Below, one piece after another: positions 19,248-34,538 of a stretch of DNA of 64,000 bases. Under the pieces are notes generated by a model. The model did not search any database. It saw only the letters and a program-made list of their open reading frames with translations, and had not been told where the DNA came from. The stretch is taken from IMG/VR virus record IMGVR_UViG_3300027869_000007; one strand, given 5' to 3'. The DNA comes from an uncultured virus (IMG/VR IMGVR_UViG_3300027869_000007). Lineage: Duplodnaviria; Heunggongvirae; Uroviricota; Caudoviricetes. Positions within the stretch are counted from its first letter, which is position 1. Each line of letters starts with the position of its first letter. Made by a program: the position numbers and the translations under genes.

Positions 19248-19793
19248 TCATAGACAGCCTAAAACGTCACAACCCTTGATATAATCCCCAAGTAGTCCAA
19301 GAATCGTCGTAACACCTTGAACCGACCGTTGAAGATTTACTAGACCGTCGCTACCTACGGTAATGCATTCAACTGTAGAAGGAGCTACTCCGCTAGAGTC
19401 TAGTTTGCCTTCGAGAGGTCGACCAACGAAGTTGATCAAGAAACGGTTACCGCAAGTAGGGCACCAGTAGTTATCGCGCTTTTTGCCGTTGCTTGTCAAG
19501 CGTGTGTCGTGATAGTGTTCTAGGCGCTTGGAGTCACTGAAATCGATAGCTGAATCACATCTAGGACATCTAAATGGGAGTAACGCGGAACCTACCTTCG
19601 TAGGGGTGATGCGACATAGCGGGAGATTAGTGTTTGGATCTCCGAAGTCAGAGTCAAACATACCCCAAAAACCACAGACCGATGGGCCGTCTAAGTAAAC
19701 GGGATGCACAGAACTAGCCTCGCCGATGTCGTCGTGTACGCTTCGGCTTAACCATAAGATGTGCGTTGCCATGATCTGAGATGAACCAGACAT
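19248..19793 (-). CDS. Zn-ribbon protein with C-terminal YIKGCDVLG tag (true start probably downstream of 19793)
   Basis: CPRC...CPTC; ends GDYIKGCDVLGCL. Confidence 0.6.
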   Translation of the reverse strand: MSGSSQIMATHILWLSRSVHDDIGEASSVHPVYLDGPSVCGFWGMFDSDFGDPNTNLPLCRITPTKVGSALLPFRCPRCDSAIDFSDSKRLEHYHDTRLTSNGKKRDNYWCPTCGNRFLINFVGRPLEGKLDSSGVAPSTVECITVGSDGLVNLQRSVQGVTTILGLLGDYIKGCDVLGCL

Positions 19794-19968
19794 TAGGATA
19801 GAATTTTGACTTCTTCATATAGTTTTCGATATGACGCCACATAGACGTCTCGGACACGTCTCGATCTAATCTAATCACAAGTCTTCCATTCTGATAGAAA
19901 CGTGAATGGTCGCTTGTTGTAATATCATCCTCTTCAGGACCTTCAAACTCGTCATCGTCGTAGTTCAT
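19714..19968 (-). CDS. Hypothetical protein
   Basis: 84 aa, ATGA-coupled. Confidence 0.55.
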   Translation of the reverse strand: MNYDDDEFEGPEEDDITTSDHSRFYQNGRLVIRLDRDVSETSMWRHIENYMKKSKFYPNVWFISDHGNAHLMVKPKRTRRHRRG

Positions 19969-20270
19969 TTGTCAGCCTTCCAGTTTTCGACTACTCCAAT
20001 CTTTCTGCCTACCTTGTCCCAACCGGCGCCGTGATGAATATCTCCAGTCTTTCGGTTAACAAAAACGAATACAGAGTTGTAATCGCCCCCAGGGCGACGC
20101 TTGAAAATCTTATAGTATTTTACTCCTTTGATGGAACCAAATTCGTAACCTGGAAATACGATAGCGAGATTATCTATCCAGCGTCCTGGAGAGTTGAGGG
20201 CTTCAATGACTCCTACTCCTGCAGACAGAGATGTATTTCTAAAACTGGACATAGAAGGTGTTCTGTACAT
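19965..20270 (-). CDS. Hypothetical protein
   Basis: 101 aa; KYYKI..SVFVFVNRKTGDI..AGW phage-type motif. Confidence 0.6.
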   Translation of the reverse strand: MYRTPSMSSFRNTSLSAGVGVIEALNSPGRWIDNLAIVFPGYEFGSIKGVKYYKIFKRRPGGDYNSVFVFVNRKTGDIHHGAGWDKVGRKIGVVENWKADK

Positions 20271-20284
20271 GGTTGGTAATAGGT

Positions 20285-20566: not shown

Positions 20567-20567
20567 G

Positions 20568-21296
20568 TTAAACCTTCCTGTACTTCGGCAACAGCGCCAG
20601 CGGATCTGGAATATCAGTAAACGCCGGTCCTTCTAGTCCTGAGATAACAGTGTTTCCGCTACCAAAACCAAACGGCGCACCGACATGGTATACGTCAGAT
20701 ACAAACTTAAACCATTTATCAGGCGAATGCTTAACCTTCACAGCGCCCGATCTAGAAAACTGTTCAAACGAATCCCACGAACCTGCTTGTCCTGCGTTCT
20801 TTGCTGCGTTAGCTAACTGTCTCGTCTCACCACTACCGACCGAATGACCTAGTTTAGTCAGCAGGTAATAATAAGTAGAACCCTTAGGAGCGACTCCCAA
20901 CGAATCCGACTCGCCCATGTATCTGCCTATCAAAGCCAATCCGCCGTTGATAGAGTAGACCGGATCGACCGATAATCTTTGATGGTCTAGTCCAAGAGAC
21001 TTAGACTCATCTGGCATCAACTGAAAATATCCACGCTCGTCCAAAGATGTAACTTCGTCGAGCTTTCCACCCGACTCCTTGGCGACCCATCCTACCAGAA
21101 GTCCAAGAGGAATTCCAGACGAGCTAGAAGCTTGCTTAAGTAAAGGCAAAATAGCGTCTACACGCTTGTAACCAGTAGACCCTGGCATAGGCGGTAGATC
21201 GGGCTCATGATCAGGGGGACTGTCCCCCGAGCTAATATACGCAGCAACAAATCCTGCCCCGCTTGCAATGAGAATAAGTGGGAGTAGAATGTTCAT
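20568..21296 (-). CDS. Membrane-anchored lytic transglycosylase (SLT-like)
   Basis: N-terminal TM helix; VAKESGG, GYFQLMP, DPVYSINGG. Confidence 0.85.
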   Translation of the reverse strand: MNILLPLILIASGAGFVAAYISSGDSPPDHEPDLPPMPGSTGYKRVDAILPLLKQASSSSGIPLGLLVGWVAKESGGKLDEVTSLDERGYFQLMPDESKSLGLDHQRLSVDPVYSINGGLALIGRYMGESDSLGVAPKGSTYYYLLTKLGHSVGSGETRQLANAAKNAGQAGSWDSFEQFSRSGAVKVKHSPDKWFKFVSDVYHVGAPFGFGSGNTVISGLEGPAFTDIPDPLALLPKYRKV

Positions 21297-21298
21297 AG

Positions 21299-21535
21299 CT
21301 ACACCTTTCTCTCAACATACTTCGCCGCTGCGATCAGCGCTACGACCGTCAAACCTCCCGCTACAGAAGTCCAGTAAGGTGTCCACTGATCAGGACGCTT
21401 ATATTCCGCTACTTCAGCACCTAGAACGTCGCATCCTAGAACGTAGAAGTTTCCTCTTGGGGAAGGCGTACCGCCACGCTTTCGTAAGCGGCTAGCTGCT
21501 GTAACAGCGGCTATACTGCCAAGGAGAATACTCAT
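21299..21535 (-). CDS. Small membrane virion protein
   Basis: FYVLGCDVLG tag plus C-terminal TM and basic tail. Confidence 0.6.
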   Translation of the reverse strand: MSILLGSIAAVTAASRLRKRGGTPSPRGNFYVLGCDVLGAEVAEYKRPDQWTPYWTSVAGGLTVVALIAAAKYVERKV

Positions 21536-22377
21536 CGTCCTCGACCGAAAAATGCTGTAGCTGCGGCCTGACCTGTCGGACCTGATGCTATCTTATAGAC
21601 TGCGAAACCTAGAAGCGCTGCAAGTCCAATCCCAATGCCAATAGTCCACTTAGAAACAGTCTCAACAGTATCAACAGCCGATGATACTTTTTGAGCTACT
21701 GCTTGTGCGGCCGACGAAACTCCTTGAGCTACTTCTACCGGAAGCTCGGCGATTGCTGTTCCAATGTCAACCCACATTTGAACCCAAATATCGTGAGCAC
21801 GACCGGCCCCCTCTTCGGCAGCATTTTCCTCCACGAACGCCATCATTACGAATTTTTTGAGATCTTCTCCTCCTGAATACCATGACGAGGGAATAAGCAC
21901 CATGCTCGCAAGTTCGTTCTCATGCCACTTGAGATGATAATAAACATTGTCTCGCTGGCCACCACCAGGAAGATTCTTACTAGCTGCTATCGAACGTGCT
22001 TCATCGATTGCAGCTTGTCCTCCTTTAAGAAGCTCACGTGCTGCCGATACAGGAACGTTCTTAAGCGTGTTCATCTGCTTCTGTTCAGCAGCAATATCAA
22101 ACACACCCATGACAACCGGCAAATCTATAGGTCGATATTCGAGACAGGTCCCGTCGGGACCGTACTTTACACACCTGACCTCATCGAATTCGTCGACGTC
22201 AGTATAAGGTCCGTCCCACCACGGCCCTCCTCCCCACCATCCGCCACCGAAACCGCGTTCGCCATGTCCGCCGCCTTGGTGCCCACCACCGCCACCGCCG
22301 TGATGTCCGCCTCCACCACCGCCCTCGATAACCTCACCAAGGACAGCGCAGCCGGTTAGATAATCGTGCGAATTCAT
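21532..22377 (-). CDS. Membrane virion protein with Gly/His-rich N-terminus
   Basis: DYLTGCAVLG tag; C-terminal TM. Confidence 0.65.
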   Translation of the reverse strand: MNSHDYLTGCAVLGEVIEGGGGGGHHGGGGGGHQGGGHGERGFGGGWWGGGPWWDGPYTDVDEFDEVRCVKYGPDGTCLEYRPIDLPVVMGVFDIAAEQKQMNTLKNVPVSAARELLKGGQAAIDEARSIAASKNLPGGGQRDNVYYHLKWHENELASMVLIPSSWYSGGEDLKKFVMMAFVEENAAEEGAGRAHDIWVQMWVDIGTAIAELPVEVAQGVSSAAQAVAQKVSSAVDTVETVSKWTIGIGIGLAALLGFAVYKIASGPTGQAAATAFFGRGR

Positions 22378-22378: not shown

Positions 22379-23110
22379 TTACTTTCGCACGGCTAGAGCA
22401 ACCACGCCACCAAGCAGTAGCGCCGCGCCTCCTGCAAGCAATCCATACTTAAGTGCCGAAGATTGCGTCGACGCCGCCGGGGTACCGGCCGCCGCTCCTG
22501 GGGTAGCAGCAGAAGAAAAAGACGGAGCGGACCTGTAAGAAGAAGAATAAATCTGCACTTGGCTACCAGTTCCTGATGCCACTCCAGGAGTTACCTTAAG
22601 CGCTGAAATAACTCCCTCGTCGATAACCCCGCTTTGTCCTGCTCCAAGGCTTCCCTGAAGAGCCTTAACCGCTGCAGCGGTTTTAGGACCGTAAGTTCCA
22701 TCAAGAGGTCCTGGGTTAAAGCCTTTAGCTTTAAGTGCTTGCTGAACTGCCAGCACGGTCACCGAATCGTTGTCGTAATTCTGACCGGCGGTAGGAATTA
22801 CGTCTTCTCCTACTACAGTCCACGCGTCGCTTTCGCCGGGGACTTCTCCGCTTTGTAACGACGGCAAAAACGGTGCAGAAATATCGCGAGTTGCCTGATA
22901 GACCTTTGACCAGTACTGTACCTTTGAGCCCTTTGCATAGTCGAGAGAGTTGTCCCACGACGGGGCGCCTAAAATATCGTAGCCTTCTCCTAAAATCTCT
23001 ACCCAAGATTCTAGTTCGTCAACAGCTTCAACAGGTTCGCCGACAATTTCGGTCCAGTTGCTACTATCGCCAAGAACAGAACAACCTGTGATATAGTCTT
23101 CGCCGGTCAT
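22379..23110 (-). CDS. Peptidoglycan-binding-domain protein with small carbohydrate-binding-like module and C-terminal TM
   Basis: VQQALKAKGFNPGPLDGTYGPKTAAAVKALQ; WDNSLDYAKGSKVQY..YQA; several tag copies. Confidence 0.8.
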   Translation of the reverse strand: MTGEDYITGCSVLGDSSNWTEIVGEPVEAVDELESWVEILGEGYDILGAPSWDNSLDYAKGSKVQYWSKVYQATRDISAPFLPSLQSGEVPGESDAWTVVGEDVIPTAGQNYDNDSVTVLAVQQALKAKGFNPGPLDGTYGPKTAAAVKALQGSLGAGQSGVIDEGVISALKVTPGVASGTGSQVQIYSSSYRSAPSFSSAATPGAAAGTPAASTQSSALKYGLLAGGAALLLGGVVALAVRK

Positions 23111-23112: not shown

Positions 23113-23616
23113 TTACTTTCTCCTGAAAAACAAAAATACACCACCGAGTAAAACCGCTGCTCCGCCGGCTATTAGTCCGTAGGTTAGCATCGGACTTGTT
23201 TTGGCTTTATCGCCCTTGGCGTTTTCTGTCTTTTGTGTCGCGTCTGGTTGCTTTTTAAAAGACGGAGTGCTGAAGCTTGGTGTTGAAACCGAAGCCGAAG
23301 CAGAAGGAGAAGGAGAAGTAGAAGTAGAAGACGTCGAAGACGACGACGACGACGTACCAGGAGCTATCGTGGCAACCGTAACCCATATGCCTAGAGCATT
23401 AGTCAAACTGTCATCAATAACACCGGACGGACTTAGCCCTTGGCTTGTTTGAAACGCTTTGATAGCTTTAGAGGTATTTGGGCCATAAGTTCCATCAAGC
23501 GTCCCCGGGTCGAAACCTTTAGCTTTTAGGGCGTTTTGGACTTTATAGACCGTCGCATAGTCTGTATACATCCCGATAATATCGGTCCAACCGTCGTCGC
23601 CTAGAACGGTATTCAT
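23113..23616 (-). CDS. Peptidoglycan-binding-domain protein with C-terminal TM (paralog of 22379..23110)
   Basis: VQNALKAKGFDPGTLDGTYGPNTSKAIKAFQ; N-terminal TVLGDDGWTDIIG. Confidence 0.85.
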   Translation of the reverse strand: MNTVLGDDGWTDIIGMYTDYATVYKVQNALKAKGFDPGTLDGTYGPNTSKAIKAFQTSQGLSPSGVIDDSLTNALGIWVTVATIAPGTSSSSSSTSSTSTSPSPSASASVSTPSFSTPSFKKQPDATQKTENAKGDKAKTSPMLTYGLIAGGAAVLLGGVFLFFRRK

Positions 23617-23810: not shown

Positions 23811-24083
23811 TTAAGCCATCACCGCAGGTTTAGACAGATTGCCGGCTACAGCGTTTCCGGCAAAAATTCCGAGCGCGTATCCGAGCACTCTGTTTCTAAG
23901 AATCTTGGATAAAACGTAACCCAAAGCTCCTGCTGTAGCAATGCCTACTAGAATTTGTGTTTTAGTCGGAGACCCGACAATGATAGTCCAACCGTTGTCT
24001 CCTGCAACATCGGCCACTTCAGAGCCAAGGACTTCCGAGCCCTTTAGGTAGTCGTCTTCCGTGCTTATCCAATTACTTGACAT
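23811..24083 (-). CDS. Small membrane protein
   Basis: DYLKGSEVLG and GDNGWTIIVG tags plus two TM helices. Confidence 0.65.
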   Translation of the reverse strand: MSSNWISTEDDYLKGSEVLGSEVADVAGDNGWTIIVGSPTKTQILVGIATAGALGYVLSKILRNRVLGYALGIFAGNAVAGNLSKPAVMA

Positions 24084-25331: not shown

Positions 25332-25781
25332 TTACTTTCCTTTTCTACTGAAGAGTTTAACCAGTCCCCAAACTACCCCTATAATACCACCACCTACAGC
25401 AATTCCGGTGTAAAAATCTGTTTGTAGTGGTCCTCCGGCAGGTTTCCCGGACACTATTGAAACGTCTGCATCTACCTTATTTTGTCTAAGACCATCAAGA
25501 ATATTGCTTTTAATAGTGTCATAGACTTGTTTCTCGACAAATCCAGGTAAAACCTGCTGTGCGACACTGCCTTTTGCTCCTGCCTGTGCGTGTACTAGAT
25601 CAGGCAGGTTACGAACATGGATAGTGAGGAATGGTCCCTCTCCCGTAGATGCTGGCGAGAGATTTGCTCCTCCAGCACCCATAGCTTTTTGAAAAGCCCC
25701 CCCGGCGTCGAATAAACCGGCGCCAAGAGCGTCGGACCCTGACGTGTAATCGTCGCCTCTCATTCCTCTAGCCTTCTTCAT
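25332..25781 (-). CDS. C-terminally anchored membrane protein
   Basis: DYTSGSDALG tag; TM followed by RKGK. Confidence 0.6.
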   Translation of the reverse strand: MKKARGMRGDDYTSGSDALGAGLFDAGGAFQKAMGAGGANLSPASTGEGPFLTIHVRNLPDLVHAQAGAKGSVAQQVLPGFVEKQVYDTIKSNILDGLRQNKVDADVSIVSGKPAGGPLQTDFYTGIAVGGGIIGVVWGLVKLFSRKGK

Positions 25782-28695
25782 CGAACGCCTGCGCGTCCGC
25801 TGCGTTCATATCTGCCTGAATCGACCCGCCCTCAGCGTCAAGCTCCGAAGCGGTCGCCATGTCCTGTGACTCTTCCTCGGGACTAGTCACTCCGTCGCCG
25901 GTATCCCCGCCTTGGTCGGCTCCCTGGTCGGCTTGCTGCATAGCAACCTCTGGGTGAGCGATCGCGTAATCCAAATCGGCTTCTTGTGCTTTTGCCTCAA
26001 GCGCAGCTTGACGCTTCGTATCCTCAAGTTCTGCCGCAGCTTCCGCCGCCGCTTGTGCCTGATCAGACTTCTGCTGCACCAGGTCTTGCGCCGCTTGCTG
26101 TGCCGCTTGCTGTTGCTGCGCGATATTAGACTGTGTATCTGCAGCCGACTGGGCTAGAGCATTTGCCGCATCCTGTGCCGCCTGCGCTTCCTGTTGTTGT
26201 GCTTGCTCCTGTGCCTGTTGCGCTGCTGTCGCAGCGTCGGCTGCCGCTTGAGCAGCTTGGGTCTTATTGTAAAGATCGCGAAGAGCATTGTCCTGCTCCT
26301 GCGTCGCCCACGACGGCGCATTATCCGACTGCCAGAAGAACTGCCCTGTGTTCTGTGCTAACTGCAGCCCGGCAAAAGGCGTACTAGGAGCGCCGACGAG
26401 AGGCCCCCACGGAACCTTCGACTTATTATCGGTACGTCGCATCGAAACTAGATTAAGTGCCTGTAGACCTGCTTCACCTGCCTTTGCGGCTTCCAAAGCG
26501 TCATCGGAATCGTCGCCGTTGTAATATCTCCAACGGCCGCCGTCGATCCAGTATACGTGATGTGTATCTGGCATCAACCCGTACAGTGTAGCTGCCGAAC
26601 CAAACGAATGATCAGGAGCCAGCGGCGCTGCTCCGGGTCTAGGGTCTCCCTTAGAGAAGTCGTAGACCACACCGTCTGGTGGGACGTCATTCCACTTCGT
26701 CTGAGCGTCTGACGCAGAAAGCGTCTGATCGCGCGTAGGAGGGGTAAACGGCTGACTTGTATCAACAGACGTTGCAGCACTGGCTGCTGGAGCGTTAGGA
26801 TCTGGAGTACCGTCCATCAGATACCCTGGATTAGATGGATCAGGAGGGTTGTTTGTAGTAGCAGCAGCAGCCGCCCCCGGGGTCGTCAGAACTGCACTAG
26901 GATCTACGCCAAGAACCTCGGCAACGACATCACCAATAATGTCGGTCCAGCCGTCGTCGCCGACGATTTCAGTCCAATCGCCCGCAATGACCACCTTTGG
27001 GTTCAGCCTCTGCATTGCCGGCTTGACCTTAGCGCGCAGCTTATCCAGATCTTTACCGGCCTGAATAGCCTTGGCTGCCGCTTTCTTAGCATGATCAACA
27101 GCAGCCTTATGCTTGGCGATTGCGTTCGTGTGCTTCTGTACCGCTGCCTGCTGTACCGGCGTCAATGCTGCAGAAGTACCAAGAACGGTCGTGCCGTTCA
27201 CCTTTACTGGCGCGAGCGGGATAATGGTCTTGTGTGCTGACGGAACATACTGTGCCGCACGTGCTTTTGCATGTGTACCTGCCGCTATTGCATTTGCGGC
27301 TACAACCTTTGCGTTCTTCATACCGACAGCGTGCGGAGACTTCTTACCAGTCGGCTTAGCTGTTGGCACGTTAATACGCCCAAGCGGTGACTTATTACCG
27401 GGTGGACCCTTACGAGGACCTGCTGGCTTGGCAGCAGGCTTAACCGACGCACCAAGAATATCGCTACCAATTATGTAGTAATTCTGTTCCTGTGACTGCG
27501 GTGTAGCACGAAAGGAGACGATAGGTTCACCAAGATCGCTAGCGACCTGCTCACCAAGCATTGTCATATCAAGGTCACCTGCGCATCCGTCAGCAGGACC
27601 GCGCTGTGTTGCTTCATAGCCGATATCGTCACCTAGCATCGTTATATCTAGGTCTCCTGTCACGTTGTCATCAGAAGTCGCCATATCCGTATTACTCCCT
27701 TGGGTTTGAGAATTAGCTGAATAAAAACTAGGAACCGAAACAGGAATCACTGAAGGTTTTACATAAGAGCTATGTACACTCTGTGCGGCAGTAGCGTGTG
27801 CCTGAGCAGCTGCTAGAGCGTCTTGTGCAGCCTTATACGCGTCACTGGTCTTGTATGTCGACTTGTATTGAGCCAGATTTATCGGATCACCGTGCCCGAT
27901 ACCGAACGCATCGTGTAGCCAGTCTCCTAAAACCGTAGTCCACTTTCCCATTACCGTACTCCTTGACTGAGCAGCTGCTTGTTGTGCTAACGCTCCCTTG
28001 AGTTTCAACTGGGCCTGTTGATAAGCAGCTGACTTAAGAAATTCCTTTGGTAGCGGTTTAGGCCCGCTCGTCTGTCCTTGTGTTGCAGCTACTGCGCCTG
28101 GACTTTTTCCGTCTTCTGATGCTACATCGACGAAGACGATACGCTGAACGTCAGTAAGCGTCGCTCTCAGCCCGGACTGCGACACCAACTCTACCTTCGT
28201 CGGATTGTCGTAGGCGAACGACTGCATGCCGAGCGGATCTCCGCTTTGCACCCCCGCTGCTGGGATACGCTTTCCGCCGTAGACGTTAGCCTGTTGAACA
28301 GTCGGATCCTGATCGGGCGGCATACTACCAAGAGGCGCGCCTGTACGAGCAACCGCTACGACTTTTGGTCCAATAATCTTCACGCCACCAGAAGGAAGTC
28401 CGGGCTGGCCTCCTGCCCACTCAGGAAGCAATCCAGACTGCTGCTCAAGAGGCTGAAGACCTTTAGCCACGCCTCCCATTCCATAGGCGGTTAGAAGAAT
28501 ATTAGCGCCCGTGACACCTCCGCCAAAGGCTTGCTTACCGACGTCGCCCCAATCTACGCCGAGATAGTCAGGATCGGCGTCGGACCTAGTGACAAAGTCC
28601 TCAGTCAGACCAAGGACTTCGTCATCAAGCGGTGTAGAATTCTCACGGGGGAGCCCCGGAGAATTCCACATTACGGTGTTGTCTCGCTTGGACAT
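25768..28695 (-). CDS. Large virion protein / putative polyprotein with many tag copies
   Basis: 975 aa; basic, acidic and Q/A coiled-coil segments separated by h-h-G motifs. Confidence 0.7.
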   Translation of the reverse strand: MSKRDNTVMWNSPGLPRENSTPLDDEVLGLTEDFVTRSDADPDYLGVDWGDVGKQAFGGGVTGANILLTAYGMGGVAKGLQPLEQQSGLLPEWAGGQPGLPSGGVKIIGPKVVAVARTGAPLGSMPPDQDPTVQQANVYGGKRIPAAGVQSGDPLGMQSFAYDNPTKVELVSQSGLRATLTDVQRIVFVDVASEDGKSPGAVAATQGQTSGPKPLPKEFLKSAAYQQAQLKLKGALAQQAAAQSRSTVMGKWTTVLGDWLHDAFGIGHGDPINLAQYKSTYKTSDAYKAAQDALAAAQAHATAAQSVHSSYVKPSVIPVSVPSFYSANSQTQGSNTDMATSDDNVTGDLDITMLGDDIGYEATQRGPADGCAGDLDMTMLGEQVASDLGEPIVSFRATPQSQEQNYYIIGSDILGASVKPAAKPAGPRKGPPGNKSPLGRINVPTAKPTGKKSPHAVGMKNAKVVAANAIAAGTHAKARAAQYVPSAHKTIIPLAPVKVNGTTVLGTSAALTPVQQAAVQKHTNAIAKHKAAVDHAKKAAAKAIQAGKDLDKLRAKVKPAMQRLNPKVVIAGDWTEIVGDDGWTDIIGDVVAEVLGVDPSAVLTTPGAAAAATTNNPPDPSNPGYLMDGTPDPNAPAASAATSVDTSQPFTPPTRDQTLSASDAQTKWNDVPPDGVVYDFSKGDPRPGAAPLAPDHSFGSAATLYGLMPDTHHVYWIDGGRWRYYNGDDSDDALEAAKAGEAGLQALNLVSMRRTDNKSKVPWGPLVGAPSTPFAGLQLAQNTGQFFWQSDNAPSWATQEQDNALRDLYNKTQAAQAAADAATAAQQAQEQAQQQEAQAAQDAANALAQSAADTQSNIAQQQQAAQQAAQDLVQQKSDQAQAAAEAAAELEDTKRQAALEAKAQEADLDYAIAHPEVAMQQADQGADQGGDTGDGVTSPEEESQDMATASELDAEGGSIQADMNAADAQAFDEEG

Positions 28696-29819
28696 TAGAT
28701 CGACAAATTAAAGATCAATGACGCAAAGTTGTTACCTGCAGTTTGCGTCACCCTAACTGCGGCAATATAGGTTGCTAGTGGTACCGGTTCGAACATATAG
28801 GAACTTGAGGTTAATGTGAAGGTATAGGCTACGTTTCCATCTGAAAACAAAAACTCTATCAAAAACGAATCAGTGAAAGTAGGGCGCCACAACGTGACGC
28901 TCTTGGCAAACGCAGGGACGACGGTTGTGATGACTCCGGCAAAGTTATTAAGAGGCAAAAATATAGTTCGCGTTAACTGTGAAGTTCTAACAATAGGGTT
29001 AAAGCTAAGTTGACCGCCAAGTAGTATCTGAGGCGGAGGGCTAGGAAGAATCAAACCGGGGAAGGTGTCTAGCGCTACCTGAAGTGTGATCTGCGACGCA
29101 AAAACCGTGAACTGACATCCCAGGCCGATATCAACCTCTGCACGCGCGGCGTACGATCTGGTGCCGAACTGTACGATACCGTAAGGGCTAATAACCAATC
29201 CGCTGCCCATCGGAACAAATTCAAAGATAGGCTGAACAGGAGAGAACATAACCGAAACAGGACGAGTCTCTACATCCTCACCCGACCACTGTGCGACTTG
29301 CACAGGCGGAGCGTTTATGGCAATTGAGGCGTTACCTCCCATTAAGGCTCCGCCTACGCTTTCAGGGTTGACGTTCACATAAGGTGCTAGCTTACTTTGC
29401 TCCTCGTTCCTAATAGATTCTGCGCGGTGCAGTTGTGCCAGATCTGATACAGGACGGCCTTCGTTGTCATAAGCTGCAAGTTCCCTTTGTTCAAGACGGT
29501 GTTTAAACTCGTCTCCTAGTACGTCGTCTCCAGCCTCCTCTCGCTTAGACTCTAGTCCAACAGACTGCTCAAAATTAAGCGAATTTTCAACATATGGACG
29601 ATAGCCTGGAACACCGTCTTCGTCGGCTACCCATGGAAGATAAGGATCTTGATCGACCTCGACTGGAGAAAAGGCATCCAAGTCCTCGATGTCAGTATAG
29701 GCGCCATTATCAACTAGTGTAACAGTATCGCCGTCAGGACGAAAACGAGGATCTTCACCCGGGCGAGGTATAGATCCTACAGTACTCTTGCCGTCTAGTT
29801 CGTCTTCTTCGCGCGACAT
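28695..29819 (-). CDS. Virion protein: acidic N-terminal region plus all-beta C-terminal domain (minor capsid/vertex candidate)
   Basis: Residues ~160-374 show a hydrophobic beta-strand pattern; DDVLG tag. Confidence 0.55.
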   Translation of the reverse strand: MSREEDELDGKSTVGSIPRPGEDPRFRPDGDTVTLVDNGAYTDIEDLDAFSPVEVDQDPYLPWVADEDGVPGYRPYVENSLNFEQSVGLESKREEAGDDVLGDEFKHRLEQRELAAYDNEGRPVSDLAQLHRAESIRNEEQSKLAPYVNVNPESVGGALMGGNASIAINAPPVQVAQWSGEDVETRPVSVMFSPVQPIFEFVPMGSGLVISPYGIVQFGTRSYAARAEVDIGLGCQFTVFASQITLQVALDTFPGLILPSPPPQILLGGQLSFNPIVRTSQLTRTIFLPLNNFAGVITTVVPAFAKSVTLWRPTFTDSFLIEFLFSDGNVAYTFTLTSSSYMFEPVPLATYIAAVRVTQTAGNNFASLIFNLSI

Positions 29820-30944
29820 TTACACTCTTCCCTTCGCCTTGTTTGCTTCTGTCAGGCATTCTTTAGCCTTAGCTATCAACTCCACTCCACCTTCACAGTT
29901 AAGCAGTTCGTCCCGTTCAGCGCATGCTCTAGCGTTACCTTTGTCACACAACTGAAGGAGCATCATTACCGATGCGACTTCAGCATCGCCCTTAGGAGTT
30001 ACCAGCCCTACAAACGAACCTTGAAGCACCTCAGGACGAGCCATAAGTCCTGGCGCCGCCTGGCATAGTTGGGATACTAGAGCACCTCCGCCAAGTACCT
30101 GAGCTAGGGCAGGAAGCACTCCCATTACTGTGACTGGATCTACGCCGGCTTCCGAAGCATATTTAGCAACTTCGTCAGCGTGGCGCTCAGCAGGAGACGA
30201 AGTAGTCGCAATGCGAACTTTACCATCAGGACCACACAGTCTAATAGAACAAAAGATATCGCAACCGTCTTGCCACGCATCGACTTTGCCTTCACTTTCA
30301 GGATGCAGCGAAAGCGGTATTTTATCTCCTGCGTCCTTAGCTTTTTCGACCAGGTCTCCGATTAGTTCTGTAGCTCCAGCTTCTGTAGAGCCTGCGTCCT
30401 TAAGATGCTCCGTAAAAGCATCTTCTAAACGCTGTACTCGACCATGTCCGTGATTATCAGAAACATGATCAGCAACATTTGCTTCTAGTTGTTCTACACG
30501 AGACTCTAAAGTTGCAATATAAGGCGCTCTCTTAGAGTCCTTCCATTTTGCATAATTTGCTTCATCGTCAACACGCACGACTCTAGGAGGCGGAATAGCT
30601 GCTTTGAACTTTTGATAAAGCTTCTGTGTAATCGGAAACAGCGTCGAATCAGTCGGCGTAAACGGAGCCGGCGATGTCGTCGTAACAGGAACTTCCCCTA
30701 GTAACTCGCCAAGAAGATAAGCATCATCAAGAACTTCGCCTATATCTTTCCCTTGAGGCGCCGGTTCTACCGTTACAGGAGGCGGTGCAACACGAAGACG
30801 CTGCGCTTGCTTGATAATATCTCTAATCGAGCATTGAACAGCTTCTTTAGAAACCTTTGGCATAGACTTATCATCATCGTCGCCGAAAATTTCGGCAGCG
30901 TCGTAATGATCAGTATCGGCGCCTAGTGTTTCGTCATTTCTCAT
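29820..30944 (-). CDS. Virion protein with tag motifs
   Basis: AEIFGD, AYLLGELLGE, ELIGD. Confidence 0.6.
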   Translation of the reverse strand: MRNDETLGADTDHYDAAEIFGDDDDKSMPKVSKEAVQCSIRDIIKQAQRLRVAPPPVTVEPAPQGKDIGEVLDDAYLLGELLGEVPVTTTSPAPFTPTDSTLFPITQKLYQKFKAAIPPPRVVRVDDEANYAKWKDSKRAPYIATLESRVEQLEANVADHVSDNHGHGRVQRLEDAFTEHLKDAGSTEAGATELIGDLVEKAKDAGDKIPLSLHPESEGKVDAWQDGCDIFCSIRLCGPDGKVRIATTSSPAERHADEVAKYASEAGVDPVTVMGVLPALAQVLGGGALVSQLCQAAPGLMARPEVLQGSFVGLVTPKGDAEVASVMMLLQLCDKGNARACAERDELLNCEGGVELIAKAKECLTEANKAKGRV

Positions 30945-32525
30945 TTAGAAAATTCCATTAACTCTGCTATATAGATTGTTGGTTGATTCAAACCTATCAG
31001 TATTCCAGGCTTTTAGACCGTTAGGACCTGCTCTATGTAAAATAGCTAGAGCGCCTGATGCGCTCATATCTTCAGGAATACCACCGTCAGGAAGTGCGAT
31101 TTCTCCTGAACATAGTTTATTTGCGTAATCAACCATCGATTTAACTAGAGTCTTATATTGAAGCATCGGGTCGTTAAGAAACTTTTTTGCGCTTAACGGT
31201 GGTATAAAATCGCCTGTCCAGATTAGACGATTTGTCTTAGGATCTTTTGTATAAGACAGACTCATTACAAGACCCAAATCTGCTAACCGACGTGGCTTCA
31301 ATTCCCAAGCACCAAGCGCGTTACTCTTTGATACTGCACCCATTTTTGCCGTACGCATTTGATCGGCAAACTTCGTCCATGCTTCATCAGATACATCAGG
31401 CAAAGGACTCGGCAAAACATAACCAGGGACATCTCCGTGAATCCTTACAGCTGAAATGCGAGAAGAAGTCGGAACAGACGAACGAACTGCACTCACTCTA
31501 AAAGGCGACGAAGTTCTAGCGGCTGTAGTTCTCGCAACCGTACTTGGTGCAGCAGCCCGAGACATCATACCGCCTGTACTTGGCGTAAAAGACGAAATAC
31601 CTCCCTGCTGAAAAGTAGTCTTTACCTGTGAGGCTAGAGGTGCAAGAGGCGCAGGTGGTGCCTTAGGTGCCGCGACGATGATGTTACCTTGCTGATCCGT
31701 AGTAATTTGAGGACTATTAGGAGGTAAATAGGACTGTTGCGCCCAGTTTTCGAAACCTGGAACTACAGAAGGGCTATCGGCACCTCCTGCAGATGGTGTG
31801 GTAGTGGTACTAGTAGCACCTTCTGCTGCAAGTGAAGCTCTACCGGCTGCTGTAGCTGTTGATACAGTTGCTGCATGTTGCGCAGCAGTAAACGCAGGTG
31901 TTCCTGGCATAGAAGGCGCGGGGGGCGCGGGTTGGGGGTATAGCGGCTGTCCCGTTGCTGGATTTATCCACTGCCCGTTAGTGAACGTTGCAGGTGCAGG
32001 CTGCGGATAAATAGGTTGACCTGTAGCCGGATTCATCCACTGTTTGCTGTTTGGGTCAAACGTTGGAGGCGCAGGCTGAGGATAAGTAGGTTGACCTGTT
32101 AGTGGGTCAAGCCACTGCCCTGTTTGTGCATTCCATGTCGGCGGTAGACCTGATGAAGGCATAGGTCCGCCGTATCCGCCTCCTCCGCCTCCGCCACCTC
32201 CGCCGCTGTCGCCGCTGTCGCCGCCACCCCCTCCGTCGTCAAGTCCGTCGTCTCCGCCGCCTTCGTTGGCGACCGCAGCGTCCATCTCGGCGTTAGCATC
32301 GTAGCCATCACCCCCGTCACCGCCGCCGCCGTTGCTCCCGTCGTATGGAATCCCGCCATCATCAGGTGCTACAACCGCGCTATCGTCGGTGGCGCCTGCG
32401 TCGCCGTCACTAGACGAGTCGTCGGACGAGCCACTTTCGGCCGCGTCCATCTCCGCATTTGCAGTATCGGCAATATCTCCTGACAGGACGTCAGTTCCGA
32501 TGAGATATGCATCACGAAGCTTCAT
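30945..32525 (-). CDS. Low-complexity virion protein with C-terminal lysozyme-like domain candidate
   Basis: D/G-rich N-terminus; 3x W.[DN]P.TGQP.YPQPAP; C-terminal ALGAWEL..LADLG..FLNDP..Q..SGALAILHRAG. Confidence 0.55.
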   Translation of the reverse strand: MKLRDAYLIGTDVLSGDIADTANAEMDAAESGSSDDSSSDGDAGATDDSAVVAPDDGGIPYDGSNGGGGDGGDGYDANAEMDAAVANEGGGDDGLDDGGGGGDSGDSGGGGGGGGGGYGGPMPSSGLPPTWNAQTGQWLDPLTGQPTYPQPAPPTFDPNSKQWMNPATGQPIYPQPAPATFTNGQWINPATGQPLYPQPAPPAPSMPGTPAFTAAQHAATVSTATAAGRASLAAEGATSTTTTPSAGGADSPSVVPGFENWAQQSYLPPNSPQITTDQQGNIIVAAPKAPPAPLAPLASQVKTTFQQGGISSFTPSTGGMMSRAAAPSTVARTTAARTSSPFRVSAVRSSVPTSSRISAVRIHGDVPGYVLPSPLPDVSDEAWTKFADQMRTAKMGAVSKSNALGAWELKPRRLADLGLVMSLSYTKDPKTNRLIWTGDFIPPLSAKKFLNDPMLQYKTLVKSMVDYANKLCSGEIALPDGGIPEDMSASGALAILHRAGPNGLKAWNTDRFESTNNLYSRVNGIF

Positions 32526-33736
32526 TATCGTCCCCTAAGAAGTCCAGTATGGGCAAGGACCCGACTATCATAATCATCATCGAAATTTTCATCAAAATCA
32601 ATAAATTCGTCTGGAATATTACCGTGCGACCAGGGGCCTAGACCTCGGTTATGGTCGGAGCCTAAGACGTCTTCTACCGACGAAAGAGCAGAATCGAGAG
32701 AAGGAGTGCTTTTACCGGCGTTTTTTCTTGCTGCGGCAGCCTTAACCATTTCTACTCGTTCTGCGTTGGCTCTTATTTGTTCGTCTCTATCGGCTTTTCG
32801 ATCAGCGCCTCCCATGCCTAGTAATAGCGACGGGTCTTCTAGTGAGTTATCAGGCCAACGAACTACTACGTGGTAGGTATAACCGCCGTCGAGACGGCGA
32901 CGCCAGACGATATATGGTGAAGCTTCGATTCCATTTTGGCGGAGTTCGGCGGCACGCCAGGTAGCGACATTGTCACAGTTATGTGTAACTACATCGCTTT
33001 CTGGTAGCCAAAAAGTTCCTGTTGAAGTTGTAATATCAACACATTCTCGTATTCTAGACGGTTCAATACCTACTATTTCAACATGAGAATCTCTTATTTT
33101 TAGAATGTCACCGACTCTAAGTCTATCGGCTCGTACAGCATCAAAACTTGTGACCATATGTCTATGATCAAGAGATGAAATTAGACGCTTTTTATTCGAT
33201 AAATAGAAAGTCAGTGTTGGTTTTTGTGAACGTTCCCAGACCTTTGTTACTGTAGCTTTATTACTATTTTTATCTGATAACACATCACCGACTTTAATTT
33301 CTCCAATAGGACAGTCTATAAAACTGTCTTTGTCGTATCTCCTTACTAAAGTCTCTATCGGAAGACAATCTCCCTTACCGTTCTCTATGATCCTGCCAAT
33401 ATCACGAAAACGCTCGCCACCTAAAACCTGTTGAATTAAGTCTAAGATAGCTGCAATCTGCGGCTCCTTTGCTTTTGAGCCGAGTGCGGCGCGCAGCGCG
33501 GCCACTTCCTCACACTCACCGCCAAACTGTGCTGGACGTTCGTAGACCACACCAGACTGATAAAGAAGTGGGGTATCTGGGTGATCAACCAGATAGGCTT
33601 GATCCCGACGAGTCAGTGCTTCTAGGAGCCACGTCAAATCAGTGCGCGCGAGGGTCTTGTCGTCGCCTCTGTTGAACAAGGAAAGGTCGAATGTTACGAA
33701 TCTTAACATGGGTTTAGCTCGGTTTCGGCTGCTCAA
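32525..33736 (-). CDS. Transglutaminase-like cysteine protease precursor containing an intein
   Basis: After removing residues 124-253: GKGD-CDNVATWRAAEL...YHVVVRW...EDPS (Cys-His-Asp triad pattern). Confidence 0.8.
   Translation of the reverse strand: MSSRNRAKPMLRFVTFDLSLFNRGDDKTLARTDLTWLLEALTRRDQAYLVDHPDTPLLYQSGVVYERPAQFGGECEEVAALRAALGSKAKEPQIAAILDLIQQVLGGERFRDIGRIIENGKGDCLPIETLVRRYDKDSFIDCPIGEIKVGDVLSDKNSNKATVTKVWERSQKPTLTFYLSNKKRLISSLDHRHMVTSFDAVRADRLRVGDILKIRDSHVEIVGIEPSRIRECVDITTSTGTFWLPESDVVTHNCDNVATWRAAELRQNGIEASPYIVWRRRLDGGYTYHVVVRWPDNSLEDPSLLLGMGGADRKADRDEQIRANAERVEMVKAAAARKNAGKSTPSLDSALSSVEDVLGSDHNRGLGPWSHGNIPDEFIDFDENFDDDYDSRVLAHTGLLRGR
32978..33367 (-). mobile_element. Mini-intein (130 aa, no homing endonuclease)
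   Basis: Starts CLPIETLV; IGEIKVGD; block B SSLDHRH; block F VDITT; ends VVTHN followed by Cys+1; DNA more AT-rich than flanks. Confidence 0.9.
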
Positions 33737-33983
33737 AGTTGGTACGACTGAATATCCTCAATTTTCTTTCTGCGGATCCTTATATTCTCTCGTAAGTAAT
33801 CAACACCTACCTCTAATAGACGAACGGCGCCAACGTTGTTTTCCCGCTGGCGCCGTTCCTTTTTCCTATGACGTCTTGATGTCTTTTTCTCGATGCGTCA
33901 TTCTGCTCTTTACTTGCCTACATGCTCATAAATAACGCTTTTCGATGACGTCTTTTTTCTAGTCTAAGTACTTGAAACTTCGA

Positions 33984-34538
33984 TTAAAGAACGGCCTTGC
34001 CGAACACTGTCATATCGAAGGTGCAAGTCTCTGCGAAGCTAACCGTGATGCTGATGCTAAGCGCCTTTTCACAGGTGTCCCACTTAATGCCGTTGCCCAG
34101 TGCGTTATTAGCGAAGAACGCAGTCAGGGTCGAACCCGCGTTCGCCGGACGCTGCGACTTCTGACCAACGAAGATCGCCTGGATACGGGTACCAAGACCG
34201 GCCGTAGTGCCGGTATCGGTCGCCATGACCTTCTCACCACGGAACAGAACCTGAGGATTCACGACAATCGTAGTCGACGTTCCTGCAGTTCCCGAGACAG
34301 GGCCGAAATCGACCTGCCAATCACGAGCCTTCGTGTTCGGCGTCTTGTGGAGCATAGGACGCGAAGCAGCCGCCCTGCGCGCAGCGTACTGCGCGAAAGC
34401 CGGAGACTTCTGCACCATCTCACCAAGAATCTCGAACGCACTTTCCTTATCTAGACCCGCGACGGTCGCCCCGCCACGCAGCTGCTCACCGACAATGTCG
34501 GTCCAGCCATCATCGCCAATTACCAACTCACCAGCCAT
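33984..34538 (-). CDS. Candidate major capsid protein (small, single jelly-roll-like)
   Basis: 184 aa; N-terminal tagged arm then ~110 aa of alternating beta strands; strongly biased codons; strong RBS (GGAG); near the head of the structural operon. Confidence 0.5.
   Translation of the reverse strand: MAGELVIGDDGWTDIVGEQLRGGATVAGLDKESAFEILGEMVQKSPAFAQYAARRAAASRPMLHKTPNTKARDWQVDFGPVSGTAGTSTTIVVNPQVLFRGEKVMATDTGTTAGLGTRIQAIFVGQKSQRPANAGSTLTAFFANNALGNGIKWDTCEKALSISITVSFAETCTFDMTVFGKAVL

Follow-up and report, generated by a model that had tools for sequence, protein, structure and literature searches.

Results and discussion

Genes of the module and their tags

The window, i.e. the whole stretch of 64,000 nucleotides that was analysed, contains between 19.2 and 35.3 kb a module of genes in which short glycine-ending peptides recur. 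The features concerned are the following, with one additional gene outside the module.

33984..34538, minus strand: jelly-roll capsid-like protein (184 aa, single jelly-roll); N-terminal GDDGWTDIVG (34488-34517), AFEILG at residues 34-39 (34422-34439)
32525..33736, minus strand: enzyme gene (403 aa, transglutaminase-like fold), intein-interrupted; catalytic Cys254 (32975-32977), His289 (32870-32872), Asp301 (32834-32836); EDVLG in the tail, residues 355-359 (32660-32674)
32978..33367, minus strand: mini-intein inside the enzyme (residues 124-253, 130 aa)
30945..32525, minus strand: 526-aa protein; N-terminal YLIGTDVLSG (32478-32507), low-complexity Gly/Pro-rich middle, conserved C-terminal domain of ~160 aa
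29820..30944, minus strand: mostly helical protein (374 aa); ETLG at the N-terminus, AEIFG, YLLGELLG (30696-30719), TELIG
28695..29819, minus strand: candidate capsid component (374 aa), C-terminal ~230 aa beta-rich; GDDVLG at residues 97-102 (29514-29531)
25768..28695, minus strand: candidate precursor (975 aa) with 12 h-h-G cores; YIIGSDILG (27451-27477), WTEIVG-DDGWTDIIG-DVVAEVLG (26908-26976)
25332..25781, minus strand: 149-aa protein; N-terminal YTSGSDALG (25722-25748), C-terminal membrane helix
24969..25328, minus strand: 119-aa protein; N-terminal EKELLG (25281-25298), C-terminal membrane helix
24482..24964, minus strand: glycine-rich membrane protein (160 aa); AYEVLG at residues 23-28 (24881-24898)
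23811..24083, minus strand: 90-aa protein; YLKGSEVLG (24024-24050), GDNGWTIIVG (23973-24002), then a membrane helix
23617..23808, minus strand: 63-aa protein; N-terminal YLEGCAVLG (23770-23796), then a membrane helix
23113..23616, minus strand: 167-aa protein; MNTVLG-DDGWTDIIG, PG_binding_1, Ser-rich linker, C-terminal membrane helix
22379..23110, minus strand: 243-aa protein; YITGCSVLG (23069-23095), WTEIVG, WVEILG (22988-23005), GYDILG, PG_binding_1, C-terminal membrane helix
21532..22377, minus strand: 281-aa protein; N-terminal YLTGCAVLG (22336-22362), Gly/His-rich stretch, conserved domain, C-terminal membrane helix
21299..21535, minus strand: 78-aa protein; MSILLG, YVLGCDVLG (21419-21445), hydrophobic C-terminal part
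20568..21296, minus strand: lytic transglycosylase (242 aa), N-terminal membrane helix, no tag
19248..19793, minus strand: zinc-ribbon-like protein (181 aa); YIKGCDVLG (19257-19283) two residues from the C-terminus
6250..6903, minus strand: 217-aa protein outside the module; YLLGSDVLG (6262-6288) three residues from the C-terminus

The full type 1 tag, Y-h-x-G-[CST]-[DEAS]-h-L-G, was found in 11 minus-strand proteins, ten encoded at 19.2-35.3 kb and one at 6250-6903. A sequence-only reading had listed these copies; all of them exist in real ORFs, the positions it gave being the low coordinates of the ORFs and not those of the motifs. A twelfth match to the regular expression, YSKGHPLLG (24683-24709), lies in a conserved glycine-rich membrane stretch and was not counted because the orthologues lack the Y/G pattern. 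The six copies of type 2 (W-T-x-I-[IV]-G) were located in the five proteins previously named for it: GDDGWTDI[IV]G at 34488-34517, 26932-26961 and 23572-23601, GDNGWTIIVG in the 90-aa protein, and WTEIVG at 23039-23056 and 26959-26976. They differ from each other at synonymous sites and their conservation is therefore at the protein level, as had been proposed. Two proteins carry the W-tag without the Y-tag, so that the suggested number of more than 15 carriers is reached when short cores are counted, but not with the 11 Y-tag and these two W-tag proteins. The carriers had also been described as otherwise unrelated, which does not apply to the 243-aa and 167-aa proteins, both matching Pfam PG_binding_1 (E 9.4e-12 and 1.2e-14, respectively).

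Among the 24 regex matches of the window and the related loci (YSKGHPLLG included), Y1, G4 and G9 are invariant, L8 is present in 23, and Ala directly follows the final Gly in 19. Position 5 is Cys, Ser or Thr in 22 of them, the exceptions being Leu in one tag and His in one match, and neither Gln nor Lys is part of the tag motif. The basic unit of the signal is acidic-hydrophobic-hydrophobic-Gly, and the full tag, [DNS][DNS]-Y-h-x-G-[CST]-D-[VI]-L-G-A, is a double unit.

Enrichment and conservation of the tag

Chance occurrence was evaluated with 500 residue shuffles per protein group. The strict type 1 pattern was observed eight times in the module and never in a shuffle, and WT.I[IV]G six times against a shuffle mean of 0.00 and a maximum of 1 per shuffle. 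The core [DE][VILMA][LI]G occurs 18 times in the module for 2.37 expected (7.6-fold; 0/500 shuffles reached 18), compared with 5 for 3.3 expected in the right arm and 1 for 1.85 expected in the minus-strand genes at 1-19.2 kb. An h-h-G core stands in the first 30 residues of 14 of the 23 module proteins, against 3/39 in the right arm and 1/21 at 1-19 kb. The full tag is absent from the 39 right-arm proteins and neither tag type occurs in the replication arm; both this absence and the enrichment over shuffled and right-arm proteins agree with the earlier expectation.

The short core is also enriched in all eight related metagenome loci that were submitted to 300 shuffles, the observed count being reached by no shuffle in seven loci and by 2/300 in L016. 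The cores hold their place in orthologues while their flanks diverge, and the tag is present in relatives whose DNA has diverged, the 374-residue protein of tag-bearing relatives being only 30-48% identical. These results support a protein-level signal, restricted to the late module and kept in relatives.

Several carriers illustrate this conservation. Homologues of the 526-aa protein in L001, L003 and L005 display DDYL[FL]G[CS]DVLGA starting at residues 7-9, and its C-terminal domain shows 44-62% identity over seven loci. In the alignment of the mostly helical protein, the four closer sequences keep a core at all spots, whereas the distant L007 and L008 keep only the last one. The candidate capsid component has 17 homologues, and an N-terminal E-L-L-G is seen in homologues; the protein has no sequence match in the PDB and its Atlas model is poor (pLDDT 0.37). 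Homologues of the glycine-rich membrane protein in L001, L003 and L006 carry NFDEVLG near the N-terminus, and those of the 281-aa protein were found in L006, L009 and L011. The leader of the 149-aa protein varies among orthologues (DIFG-SDVIG, YLVGTDVLG, LEILG, EIFG) and is missing in L011, where the protein begins at the conserved core; judging from these orthologues, the leader would be dispensable. The zinc-ribbon-like protein gave weak zinc-finger matches only, and the 217-aa protein matched no family.

Most of the small carriers have one C-terminal membrane helix, with which the N-terminal tag would face the cytoplasm and the capsid, within reach of a soluble enzyme. The untagged transglycosylase (Pfam SLT, E 1.3e-4; PHROG lytic tail protein and transglycosylase) gives context for a particle with wall-degrading enzymes.

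A large candidate precursor

Beside YIIGSDILG, the cores of the 975-aa protein include the twin DITMLG/DMTMLG, and they flank two basic segments, residues 416-506 (net +15) and 507-588 (net +5). Its orthologues in L003, L001, L006, L011 and L009 have the same layout, the net charge of their basic segments being +10 to +33 and the flanks acidic; in six orthologues of this ~1000-residue protein, the cores thus bracket strongly basic segments. Tandem units also occur: VEILG is twinned in L003, EILG is repeated in L009 and L011, and L001 has seven cores within ~55 residues, which look more like a multivalent binding array than cut sites.

The Cys-His-Asp enzyme and its intein

At the head of the module, the enzyme gene comes after the gene of the capsid-like jelly-roll protein, and it lies within the module in every locus reaching that position (the window, L001 and L008 in part, L003, L005, L009, L011 and L016). 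Its Cys, His and Asp are invariant in 51 sequences, among 220 homologues found. It had been described as a transglutaminase-like protease: the Cys-His-Asp residues and the fold agree with this, but Pfam Transglut_core matches neither the enzyme nor, even at E<=1, the homologues that lack the intein. PDB sequences searched with a profile gave no match either. Foldseek matched its structure model (pLDDT 79.4) with TgpA, 3isr, 3kd4, PeiP/PeiW and LapG (best E 0.017), and VIA gave Z-scores of 7.7 for 3kd4, 7.2 for PeiW, 6.7 for PeiP, 6.2 for TglA and 5.5 for LapG, moderate values of a kind often obtained when a model has no clear match. At this level, the model best fits the thiol enzymes of the transglutaminase fold, proteases and isopeptidases included, a fold class to which acyltransferases, transglutaminases and cell-wall isopeptidases belong as well. 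The enzyme has neither a signal peptide nor a membrane helix nor a wall-binding domain. It belongs to the best-conserved proteins of the module, with 58% identity to L005 as opposed to 40-42% in the case of the 374-residue protein. The EDVLG noticed earlier in its tail is present, at a spot that is not conserved in relatives.

The description of the protease as spliced is supported by the mini-intein, which starts with Cys, ends with His-Asn and has the catalytic Cys of the enzyme as its +1 residue. It matches the gp41-1 intein (6qaz, E 0.0026) and, in comparison with two homologues that have no intein (L009:7298-8257 and L011:7061-8113), it is inserted precisely. The enzyme homologues of L005 and L003 match Intein_splicing, that of L003 also matching LAGLIDADG_3. 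We infer that the enzyme is a protease acting on the tag, and the cut position in the same way.

The jelly-roll protein and the kind of particle

In the jelly-roll protein, GDDGWTDIVG and AFEILG stand before the conserved helix and beta domain. The AF2 model (pLDDT 84.9) is closest by Foldseek to bromovirus and cucumovirus coat proteins (E 3e-3) and by VIA to a nanovirus coat protein (Z 8.1), HCIV-1 (7.7), SPV1 (7.5), HHIV-2 (7.4) and P23-77 VP17 (6.8). The family comprises 407 cluster representatives at E<=0.001. An h-h-G core precedes the conserved helix by at most 25 residues in 35 of the 61 aligned members, whose N-terminal extensions range from ~17 to 111 residues (up to ~380 in other matches); many extensions have a core at their end, directly ahead of the conserved fold. 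Many members have W-x-[DE]-I-x-G-E-Q-x-R-G-G as their own N-terminal motif. AFEILG is predicted inside a helix (residues 31-44) and not in a loop, which counts against cutting there.

Neither portal nor terminase was found in the sequence of this virus, which probably has an internal membrane, and we infer that the carriers are particle proteins. The two proteins tried have no sequence similarity in GenBank phage records, and a literature search found no published description of this system.

Possible roles of the tag

We hold it about as probable as not that the tag combines a cut site with an address signal. According to this proposal, the enzyme would become active once its intein has spliced out, recognise the units and cut after the final Gly. 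Cutting would take short N-terminal leaders off the tail-anchored membrane proteins and the jelly-roll protein, and would also dissect the ~1000-residue protein, whose basic, probably DNA-binding, segments would be freed during particle maturation. The same peptide may act earlier as an address to the assembling particle, in the manner of the T4 capsid-targeting sequence. The bracketing of basic segments by tags and the position of tags ahead of conserved cores would favour cleavage, on sequence grounds. Conversely, a conserved motif of 12 residues is longer than most protease sites, and cutting at the two tags located 2-3 residues from a C-terminus would remove almost nothing; these two tags fit an address tag.

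A tag that serves only as an address, and stays attached, is accordingly a possibility that we take seriously while thinking it improbable. It would dock onto some conserved part of the particle, for instance a scaffold or, in the capsid proteins, the inner face or the N-terminal arm. Membrane proteins of the virus and cargo would be sorted into the particle in this way, and the enzyme would have another job. The occurrence of tags at either protein end (mostly N-terminal), the tandem arrays and the length of the motif with its three invariant positions are in line with this, and the copying of the jelly-roll protein's own N-terminal W-motif onto other proteins would suit mimicry of a lattice contact. 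However, the cores at the borders of oppositely charged segments in the large protein, the orthologue without leader and the very variable extensions ending in a core before the conserved fold are easier to explain by removal, and a conserved thiol enzyme is always within the module. That this enzyme is instead a particle-borne cell-wall endopeptidase or isopeptidase for entry or lysis, like PeiW/PeiP, the tag being unrelated to it and read by another viral or host factor, is unlikely. PeiW and PeiP are among its best structural matches and the module also codes for a lytic transglycosylase and two PG_binding_1 proteins, but other enzymes of the fold score alike (3kd4, TglA and LapG), so that the match names a fold and not a substrate; the lack of export or wall-binding features, the location after the jelly-roll gene and the high conservation also argue against it.

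Covalent modification, in which the thiol enzyme would form an acyl-enzyme at the tag and then transfer it, is judged very unlikely. The enzyme could be a transpeptidase joining a C-terminal Gly, once this is exposed, to an amine of a lipid or capsid protein; it could also be an acyltransferase loading the conserved Cys/Ser/Thr of position 5. This position is a nucleophile in nearly all matches, and transglutaminases, arylamine N-acetyltransferases and TglA belong to the fold class. Moreover, the C-terminal V-L-G followed by 2-3 residues resembles the precursors of ubiquitin-like proteins and Atg8, in which trimming uncovers a terminal Gly that is then conjugated. Nevertheless, the usual substrates of transglutaminases, Gln and Lys, are missing from the tag, Leu and His each occur once at position 5, and transfer from the mostly N-terminal tags would attach only a short leader. 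Finally, many copies are near gene 5' ends, where DNA signals could be shared, and one might see in the tag a product of chance, of low-complexity sequence, or of a repeat or a regulatory site in the DNA close to the starts of genes. This reading, to which we assign a negligible probability, is refuted by the shuffles, the synonymous variation and the same peptide in relatives with diverged DNA; copies are also found mid-protein and at C-termini.

Comparison with known systems

The combined role has its best model, by analogy, in the T4 capsid-targeting sequence, a short N-terminal leader that brings unrelated internal proteins into the particle during its assembly, before the prohead protease gp21 cuts it off. 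T4 is tailed, its capsid has the HK97 fold and its protease is a serine enzyme cutting after Glu, whereas the present tags are also internal, C-terminal and in tandem, on mostly membrane-anchored carriers.

Adenain cuts at (M/I/L)XGG-X and (M/I/L)XGX-G. The likeness lies in one viral cysteine enzyme facing many unrelated particle proteins with a short Gly-containing site, its substrates including basic core proteins bound to DNA and proteins beneath the capsid shell. A further parallel is a site near the C-terminus of pVI, which frees a short peptide that is both substrate and cofactor (PMC3386624). In the present system, by contrast, the order Cys-His-Asp and the transglutaminase-like fold preclude homology to adenain, the motif exceeds that of adenovirus in length (up to 12 residues) and has hydrophobic residues in the two places preceding Gly, the virus infects bacteria and cutting is putative. 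Poxvirus I7 and ASFV pS273R process polyproteins at AG-X and GG-X sites. They share the Gly before the cut, the small residues after it and the dissection of large precursors into core components, but belong to a Ulp1/adenain-like clan, with eukaryotic hosts and two-residue sites. The earlier label of adenovirus/NCLDV-like maturation consequently describes function only, the enzyme being no relative of adenain, I7 or S273R.

Structurally, the model of the enzyme is nearer to the thiol hydrolases LapG, PeiW/PeiP, BDI_1141/3kd4, 3isr and TgpA (Z 7.7 to 4.8 over 92-118 aligned residues), with a helix bearing the Cys and, after it, strands bearing His and Asp, although searches of Pfam and of PDB sequences gave no match. 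The substrate of LapG is an adhesin, cleaved at a di-alanine site, and PeiW/PeiP cut pseudomurein; we know of no particle-maturation enzyme among these hydrolases. The particle recalls the tailless, internal-membrane viruses PRD1, P23-77, HCIV-1 and HHIV-2 by its jelly-roll capsid-like protein, its many small membrane proteins, its membrane-anchored wall-degrading and wall-binding proteins, and the lack of a detected portal or terminase. It differs from them by a much larger genome (64 kb in the window, 85,788 bases in the source contig) with a full replication arm, and by a main capsid protein assigned only as candidates. To our knowledge, none of these four viruses has a maturation protease.

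Conclusions

The tag is best explained as a short linear signal that late (particle) proteins have in common in a bacterial virus not described so far. Together with the neighbouring enzyme, and with cutting as a putative step, it looks like an adenovirus-style system of particle maturation.

Gene organization of the window

Minus-strand genes fill 1-35.3 kb and plus-strand genes 35.4-64 kb of the window, which represents 64 kb out of a contig whose length is given as 85,788 bases in the protein database. Pfam and PHROG scans of the window ORFs assigned replication and nucleotide functions to the right arm, whose products include a ribonucleotide reductase, a D5-type primase-helicase, a PD-(D/E)XK nuclease, helicases, RtcB, a family A polymerase, a MazG-like pyrophosphatase and a sigma-70-like factor. 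The minus-strand genes between 19.2 and 35.3 kb, referred to here as the module, returned almost no match in the same scans, the exceptions being an SLT transglycosylase, two PG_binding_1 domains, weak zinc-finger matches and DUF7717 on the 101-residue protein of 19965-20270, which is also matched, like that of 19248-19793, by PHROGs of unknown function. Among the ORFs of these 64 kb of the 85,788-base contig, the Pfam and PHROG scans revealed neither a portal nor a terminase nor an HK97-type capsid gene. The main genes discussed are the following:

509-2605, minus strand, protein with a pectin-lyase-like N-terminus (PHROG E 7.4e-10)
8893-10419, minus strand, Phage_BR0599 domain protein (Pfam E 8.3e-5)
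10640-11026, minus strand, protein with an Xre/MbcA/ParS antitoxin C-terminal toxin-binding domain (E 3.9e-6)
18341-18679, minus strand, cREC_REC (cyclic-phosphate processing receiver) domain protein (E 1.9e-25)
24239-24478, minus strand, very basic 79-residue protein
25332-25781, minus strand, 149-residue protein
25768-28695, minus strand, 975-residue protein, candidate precursor
28695-29819, minus strand, 374-residue protein
30945-32525, minus strand, 526-residue protein
32525-33736, minus strand, 403-residue Cys-His-Asp enzyme, interrupted by an intein
33984-34538, minus strand, 184-residue putative jelly-roll protein (called the jelly-roll protein below)
45254-46228, minus strand, RecA/DnaB-like ATPase
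55576-56820, plus strand, RtcB RNA ligase (E 4.6e-120)

The Phage_BR0599 domain, which is typical of tail-hub proteins, and the pectin-lyase-like protein may indicate a tail or spike apparatus in this virus. The minus-strand genes of the distal left arm include those for an asparagine synthase homologue and a methyltransferase, along with two or three that are glycosyltransferase-like (6949-8571, 11023-11553, 11912-14370, 15379-16587); their products may act on the host surface or on particle proteins as modifying enzymes. The cREC_REC protein and RtcB may form an RNA-repair pair directed against a host RNA-cutting defence, and the product of 10640-11026 may be a counter-defence antitoxin. The G+C content reaches 0.56-0.59 at 42000-46000, compared with 0.41-0.54 in the other 2-kb windows; this stretch encodes an Ead/Ea22-like protein and the RecA/DnaB-like ATPase, a homologue of which adjoins the structural module in the related locus L011.

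A short peptide motif shared by many module proteins

Three forms of the motif were considered: the full tag Y-h-x-G-[CST]-[DEAS]-h-L-G, the W-tag W-T-x-I-[IV]-G and the core, an acidic residue followed by h-h-G. All the copies listed in the sequence-only reading, which had proposed a peptide tag common to more than 15 virion proteins and associated with a transglutaminase-like protease, were found to be present. Eleven full tags are distributed among ten module proteins and the protein of 6250-6903, and six W-tags among five proteins, all of them on the minus strand and inside long ORFs. A twelfth match to the full-tag expression, YSKGHPLLG (24683-24709), sits in a conserved membrane stretch and was discarded as a tag. 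Residue shuffles never equalled the counts observed in the module, so that the predicted enrichment over shuffled and right-arm proteins was borne out.

Table. Motif counts in window proteins and in their residue shuffles
Motif; proteins; observed; shuffles
Strict tag; module; 8; absent from all shuffles
W-tag; module; 6; mean 0.00, maximum 1
Acidic-h-h-G core; module; 18; expected 2.37 (none of 500 shuffles reached 18)
Acidic-h-h-G core; right arm; 5; expected 3.3
Acidic-h-h-G core; 1-19.2 kb; 1; expected 1.85

The codons vary between motif copies, which indicates conservation of the peptide and not of the DNA. The placement is also particular to the module, since a core lies in the first 30 residues of 14 of its 23 proteins, versus 3/39 in the right arm and 1/21 at 1-19 kb. 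Interpretation of Y-h-x-G-C as a lipoprotein lipobox was rejected because no signal peptide is found upstream and the Cys is frequently replaced by Ser or Thr.

Conservation of the motif in related loci

The 374-residue protein has 17 homologues in metagenomes, and a scan of metagenome contigs with A2, an alignment of this protein, retrieved 15 loci syntenic with the module. The full tag also occurs in the related loci L001, L003, L004, L005, L006 and L011, frequently at the same position, with recurring sites at the N-terminus of homologues of the 526-residue protein and in the middle of those of the 975-residue protein. The 24 regular-expression matches from the window and these loci, including the discarded YSKGHPLLG, give the consensus [DNS][DNS]-Y-[LI]-x-G-[CST]-D-[VI]-L-G-A, where the Tyr and both Gly are invariant and Ala follows the last Gly in 19 cases. 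Orthologue alignments resolve the full tag into two basic units: the counterpart of the window's YTSG-SDALG is DIFG-SDVIG in L001, L003 and L004, and one unit only, LEILG or EIFG, in L009 and L013. The distant loci L009, L011 and L016 mostly display single or tandem units close to N-termini. Seven tandem h-h-G cores, spaced by 6-11 residues, occupy residues about 767-819 of the L001 5108-8758 protein (in order D-M-L-G, D-V-L-G, D-I-L-G, S-I-L-G, D-I-L-G, E-L-L-G and D-I-L-G). Enrichment of the core in the module was observed in all eight loci examined with 300 shuffles each, the observed count being reached by no shuffle in seven of them and by two in L016. The core of the signal is thus common to the lineage, distant loci with single or tandem units included; in the sequences compared, it is the window's closer relatives that typically show the extended Y form.

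Among species genomes, a search with the enzyme alignment retrieved one contig binned with a Gemmatimonadota genome (L016), together with one short doubtful match (L017). L016 carries the enzyme as well as short leaders of the h-h-G type, and several of its small proteins are very basic. The bin of L016 gives a weak hint at the host phylum. Nothing was retrieved from species genomes with P0010, a homologue of the 374-residue protein. IMG/VR returned no match to the 374-residue protein or to the enzyme alignment and no exact match to the back-translated GDDGWTDI[IV]G pattern, and tblastn with these two proteins gave no match in GenBank phages.

The putative jelly-roll protein and particle type

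The jelly-roll protein is the most conserved of the module, with 79% identity to its L003 counterpart versus 41% for the 374-residue protein, and its homologues form 407 cluster representatives in metagenomes. In its model (pLDDT 84.9), the N-terminus is disordered and two helices accompany a beta sandwich. Matches to residues 68-184 are single jelly-roll coat proteins, comprising coats of plant viruses and nanoviruses, HCIV-1, SPV1, HHIV-2 and P23-77 VP17 (Z 8.1-6.8), and non-viral sandwiches such as GOLD domains and the furin P domain score equally on this model. HCIV-1, HHIV-2 and P23-77 are internal-membrane viruses. In the ESM Atlas, the model for the 374-residue protein was poor and provided no usable neighbour; searching PDB sequences with A1, another alignment of this protein, likewise gave nothing useful.

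The small tag carriers mostly possess one C-terminal membrane helix, often followed by a few basic residues. Two tag carriers bear a peptidoglycan-binding domain, and an untagged neighbour is a membrane-anchored transglycosylase. This set of a putative jelly-roll protein, membrane carriers and wall enzymes recalls that of PRD1 and other tailless viruses possessing an internal membrane. By analogy, we infer an internal-membrane particle in which the tags would face the capsid.

Two tandem jelly-roll paralogues are encoded in L009 (6066-6662 and 6684-7298) and a single copy in the window; the L009 pair would fit a capsid built of two single jelly-roll proteins. The untagged 79-residue protein of 24239-24478, extremely basic and rich in Lys and Arg throughout, is conserved in L003 and L006, several such genes being found in L016, and is a candidate DNA-condensing core protein.

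A Cys-His-Asp enzyme interrupted by an intein

The enzyme has no Pfam match and belongs to a family of 220 members in the searched database. Across 51 aligned homologues, C117, H152 and D164 (L009 numbering) are invariant and follow each other in Cys-His-Asp order, the His lying 35 residues after the catalytic Cys and the Asp 12 residues past the His; the equivalent residues in the window enzyme are Cys254, His289 and Asp301. Of the 120 homologues listed out of 220, none was named or had a transglutaminase-type Pfam domain among its precomputed entries, and at least three had intein-related entries only (Intein_splicing). For L009:7298-8257 and L011:7061-8113, two homologues free of the intein, Pfam at E<=1 assigned no family, Transglut_core included, and the enzyme alignment A4 used as a profile found nothing among PDB sequences.

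An AlphaFold2 model (pLDDT 79.4) was built on the natural intein-less L009 homologue in place of the spliced window enzyme. It displays a helix at 117-130 followed by strands at 136-143 and 149-156. Foldseek matched it to TgpA, the putative proteases 3isr and 3kd4, PeiP, PeiW and LapG, with a moderate best E of 0.017. VIA, a structure search independent of Foldseek, gave similarly moderate scores for 3kd4 (Z 7.7), PeiW (7.2), PeiP (6.7), TglA (6.2) and LapG (5.5), PNGase and transglutaminases scoring lower at Z about 5. Every one of these matches is a thiol enzyme of the transglutaminase fold. The model therefore points to a Cys-His-Asp enzyme of transglutaminase-like fold, putatively a protease, a wording adopted because the structural scores are moderate, Pfam gives no match and the PDB profile search is empty. 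No adenain-type chain was present among the matches listed by Foldseek and VIA. In adenain, I7 and pS273R, which adopt the adenain-type fold, the catalytic residues come as His-(Glu/Asp)-Cys; the present enzyme differs from these Ulp1-like proteases in this order and, by its model, in fold, and any likeness would be functional only.

Residues 124-253 begin with Cys, end with THN and are followed by Cys254, and residues 144-253 match the gp41-1 mini-intein 6qaz (E 0.0026). The L009 and L011 homologues lack exactly residues 124-253 and read ...G-G-G-D-C-D-N-V-A... across the gap, which places the insert directly before the catalytic Cys, this Cys being its own +1 residue. By its sequence features the insert is an intein (Hint domain), and the L005 and L003 homologues match Intein_splicing in Pfam. 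At this site the intein measures 130 residues in the window and is similar in L005 (1978-3198); that of L003 (4794-6680), which has a LAGLIDADG match, is larger at about 350 residues. Two further genes are inserted between the jelly-roll and enzyme genes of L003 (2188-4722, minus strand), a methyltransferase-like ORF and an ORF for a 390-residue TnpB/OrfB-like transposon protein, as judged by eye.

Cut site or address

The sequence-only reading had interpreted the tag as a cleavage site for the enzyme or as an assembly or cross-linking address. The analysis bears out the tag set as a protein-level signal and lends partial support to this interpretation. We give about an even chance to the tag being a cut site of this enzyme, possibly serving also as an address. 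Cores located just ahead of conserved folds favour cutting: in the jelly-roll family, a core lies at most 25 residues from the conserved helix in 35 of 61 aligned members, and the N-terminal extensions, 17-111 residues long among the aligned members and up to about 380 in other matches, are not conserved. The L011 orthologue of the 149-residue protein begins at the conserved core, its leader being absent and hence dispensable, which argues in the same direction. So do the 975-residue protein and five orthologues, where clusters of cores flank strongly basic segments (net +10 to +33) amid acidic regions, the expected layout of a precursor releasing DNA-binding pieces, and the small residue, mostly Ala, found after the last Gly.

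Other features favour a docking tag: in two proteins the full tag ends only 2-3 residues short of the C-terminus, units occur in tandem arrays (seven consecutive ones in L001), the stretch under conservation is long for a motif, and the W-form is the N-terminal motif of the jelly-roll protein itself in many relatives, copied here onto other proteins. Set against the leaders, folds and bracketed basic segments that favour cutting, an address function alone appears to us rather unlikely, at about one chance in four. In adenovirus, a cut near the C-terminus of pVI frees a peptide that is both protease substrate and cofactor (PMC3386624). A complex prediction combining residues 1-205 of the L011 enzyme (from A8, a further alignment) with a 51-residue tagged stretch of L011:15964-18198 gave a score of 0.02, which weighs neither for nor against recognition of the tag. 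That the enzyme could be a wall hydrolase unrelated to the tag is improbable in our estimation, and covalent transfer at the tag is slightly less probable still. One peptide can fulfil both the cutting and the address role: the T4 capsid-targeting sequence is a leader that unites address and removal in the particle. What is seen here of that comparison is the N-terminal position (14/23 module proteins).

Favouring the cut site, a complete maturation programme can be proposed tentatively, with somewhat less confidence than the cut site itself. The 12-residue peptide would be both a cut site and an address by which at least a dozen proteins of the membrane and core enter the particle. The putative transglutaminase-fold protease would be gated by its intein, remaining inactive until the latter splices out at the catalytic Cys. 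The precursor of about 1000 residues would then be dissected into basic DNA-condensing peptides, and the two C-terminally tagged proteins may be covalently joined via their exposed Gly. Such a programme would operate in a bacterial jelly-roll virus with an internal membrane, using parts unrelated to those of adenovirus.

Significance for virus maturation

A maturation protease acting at one short site on many particle proteins is employed by adenoviruses, poxviruses, ASFV and tailed phages; to our knowledge, no such maturation has been described for viruses of prokaryotes that have a jelly-roll capsid or an internal membrane. Searches of the open full-text literature yielded no paper connecting maturation in prokaryotic viruses of the jelly-roll or membrane-containing kind with either a transglutaminase-like enzyme or a common Gly motif. 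The putative system described here would belong with viral maturation or targeting signals. The lineage was missed by current virus catalogues in our searches of IMG/VR and GenBank phages, yet it is represented in metagenomes by 220 enzyme homologues and 407 jelly-roll cluster representatives. Whether cut site or address, the tag would provide a portable signal of 9-12 residues, for example for loading cargo into particles. As an address, it would account for the sorting of viral membrane proteins to the internal membrane, a question also posed by PRD1-like viruses. As a cut site, it would mean that the adenovirus strategy was invented independently, with another enzyme fold, by viruses of a group possibly related to adenoviruses by descent.
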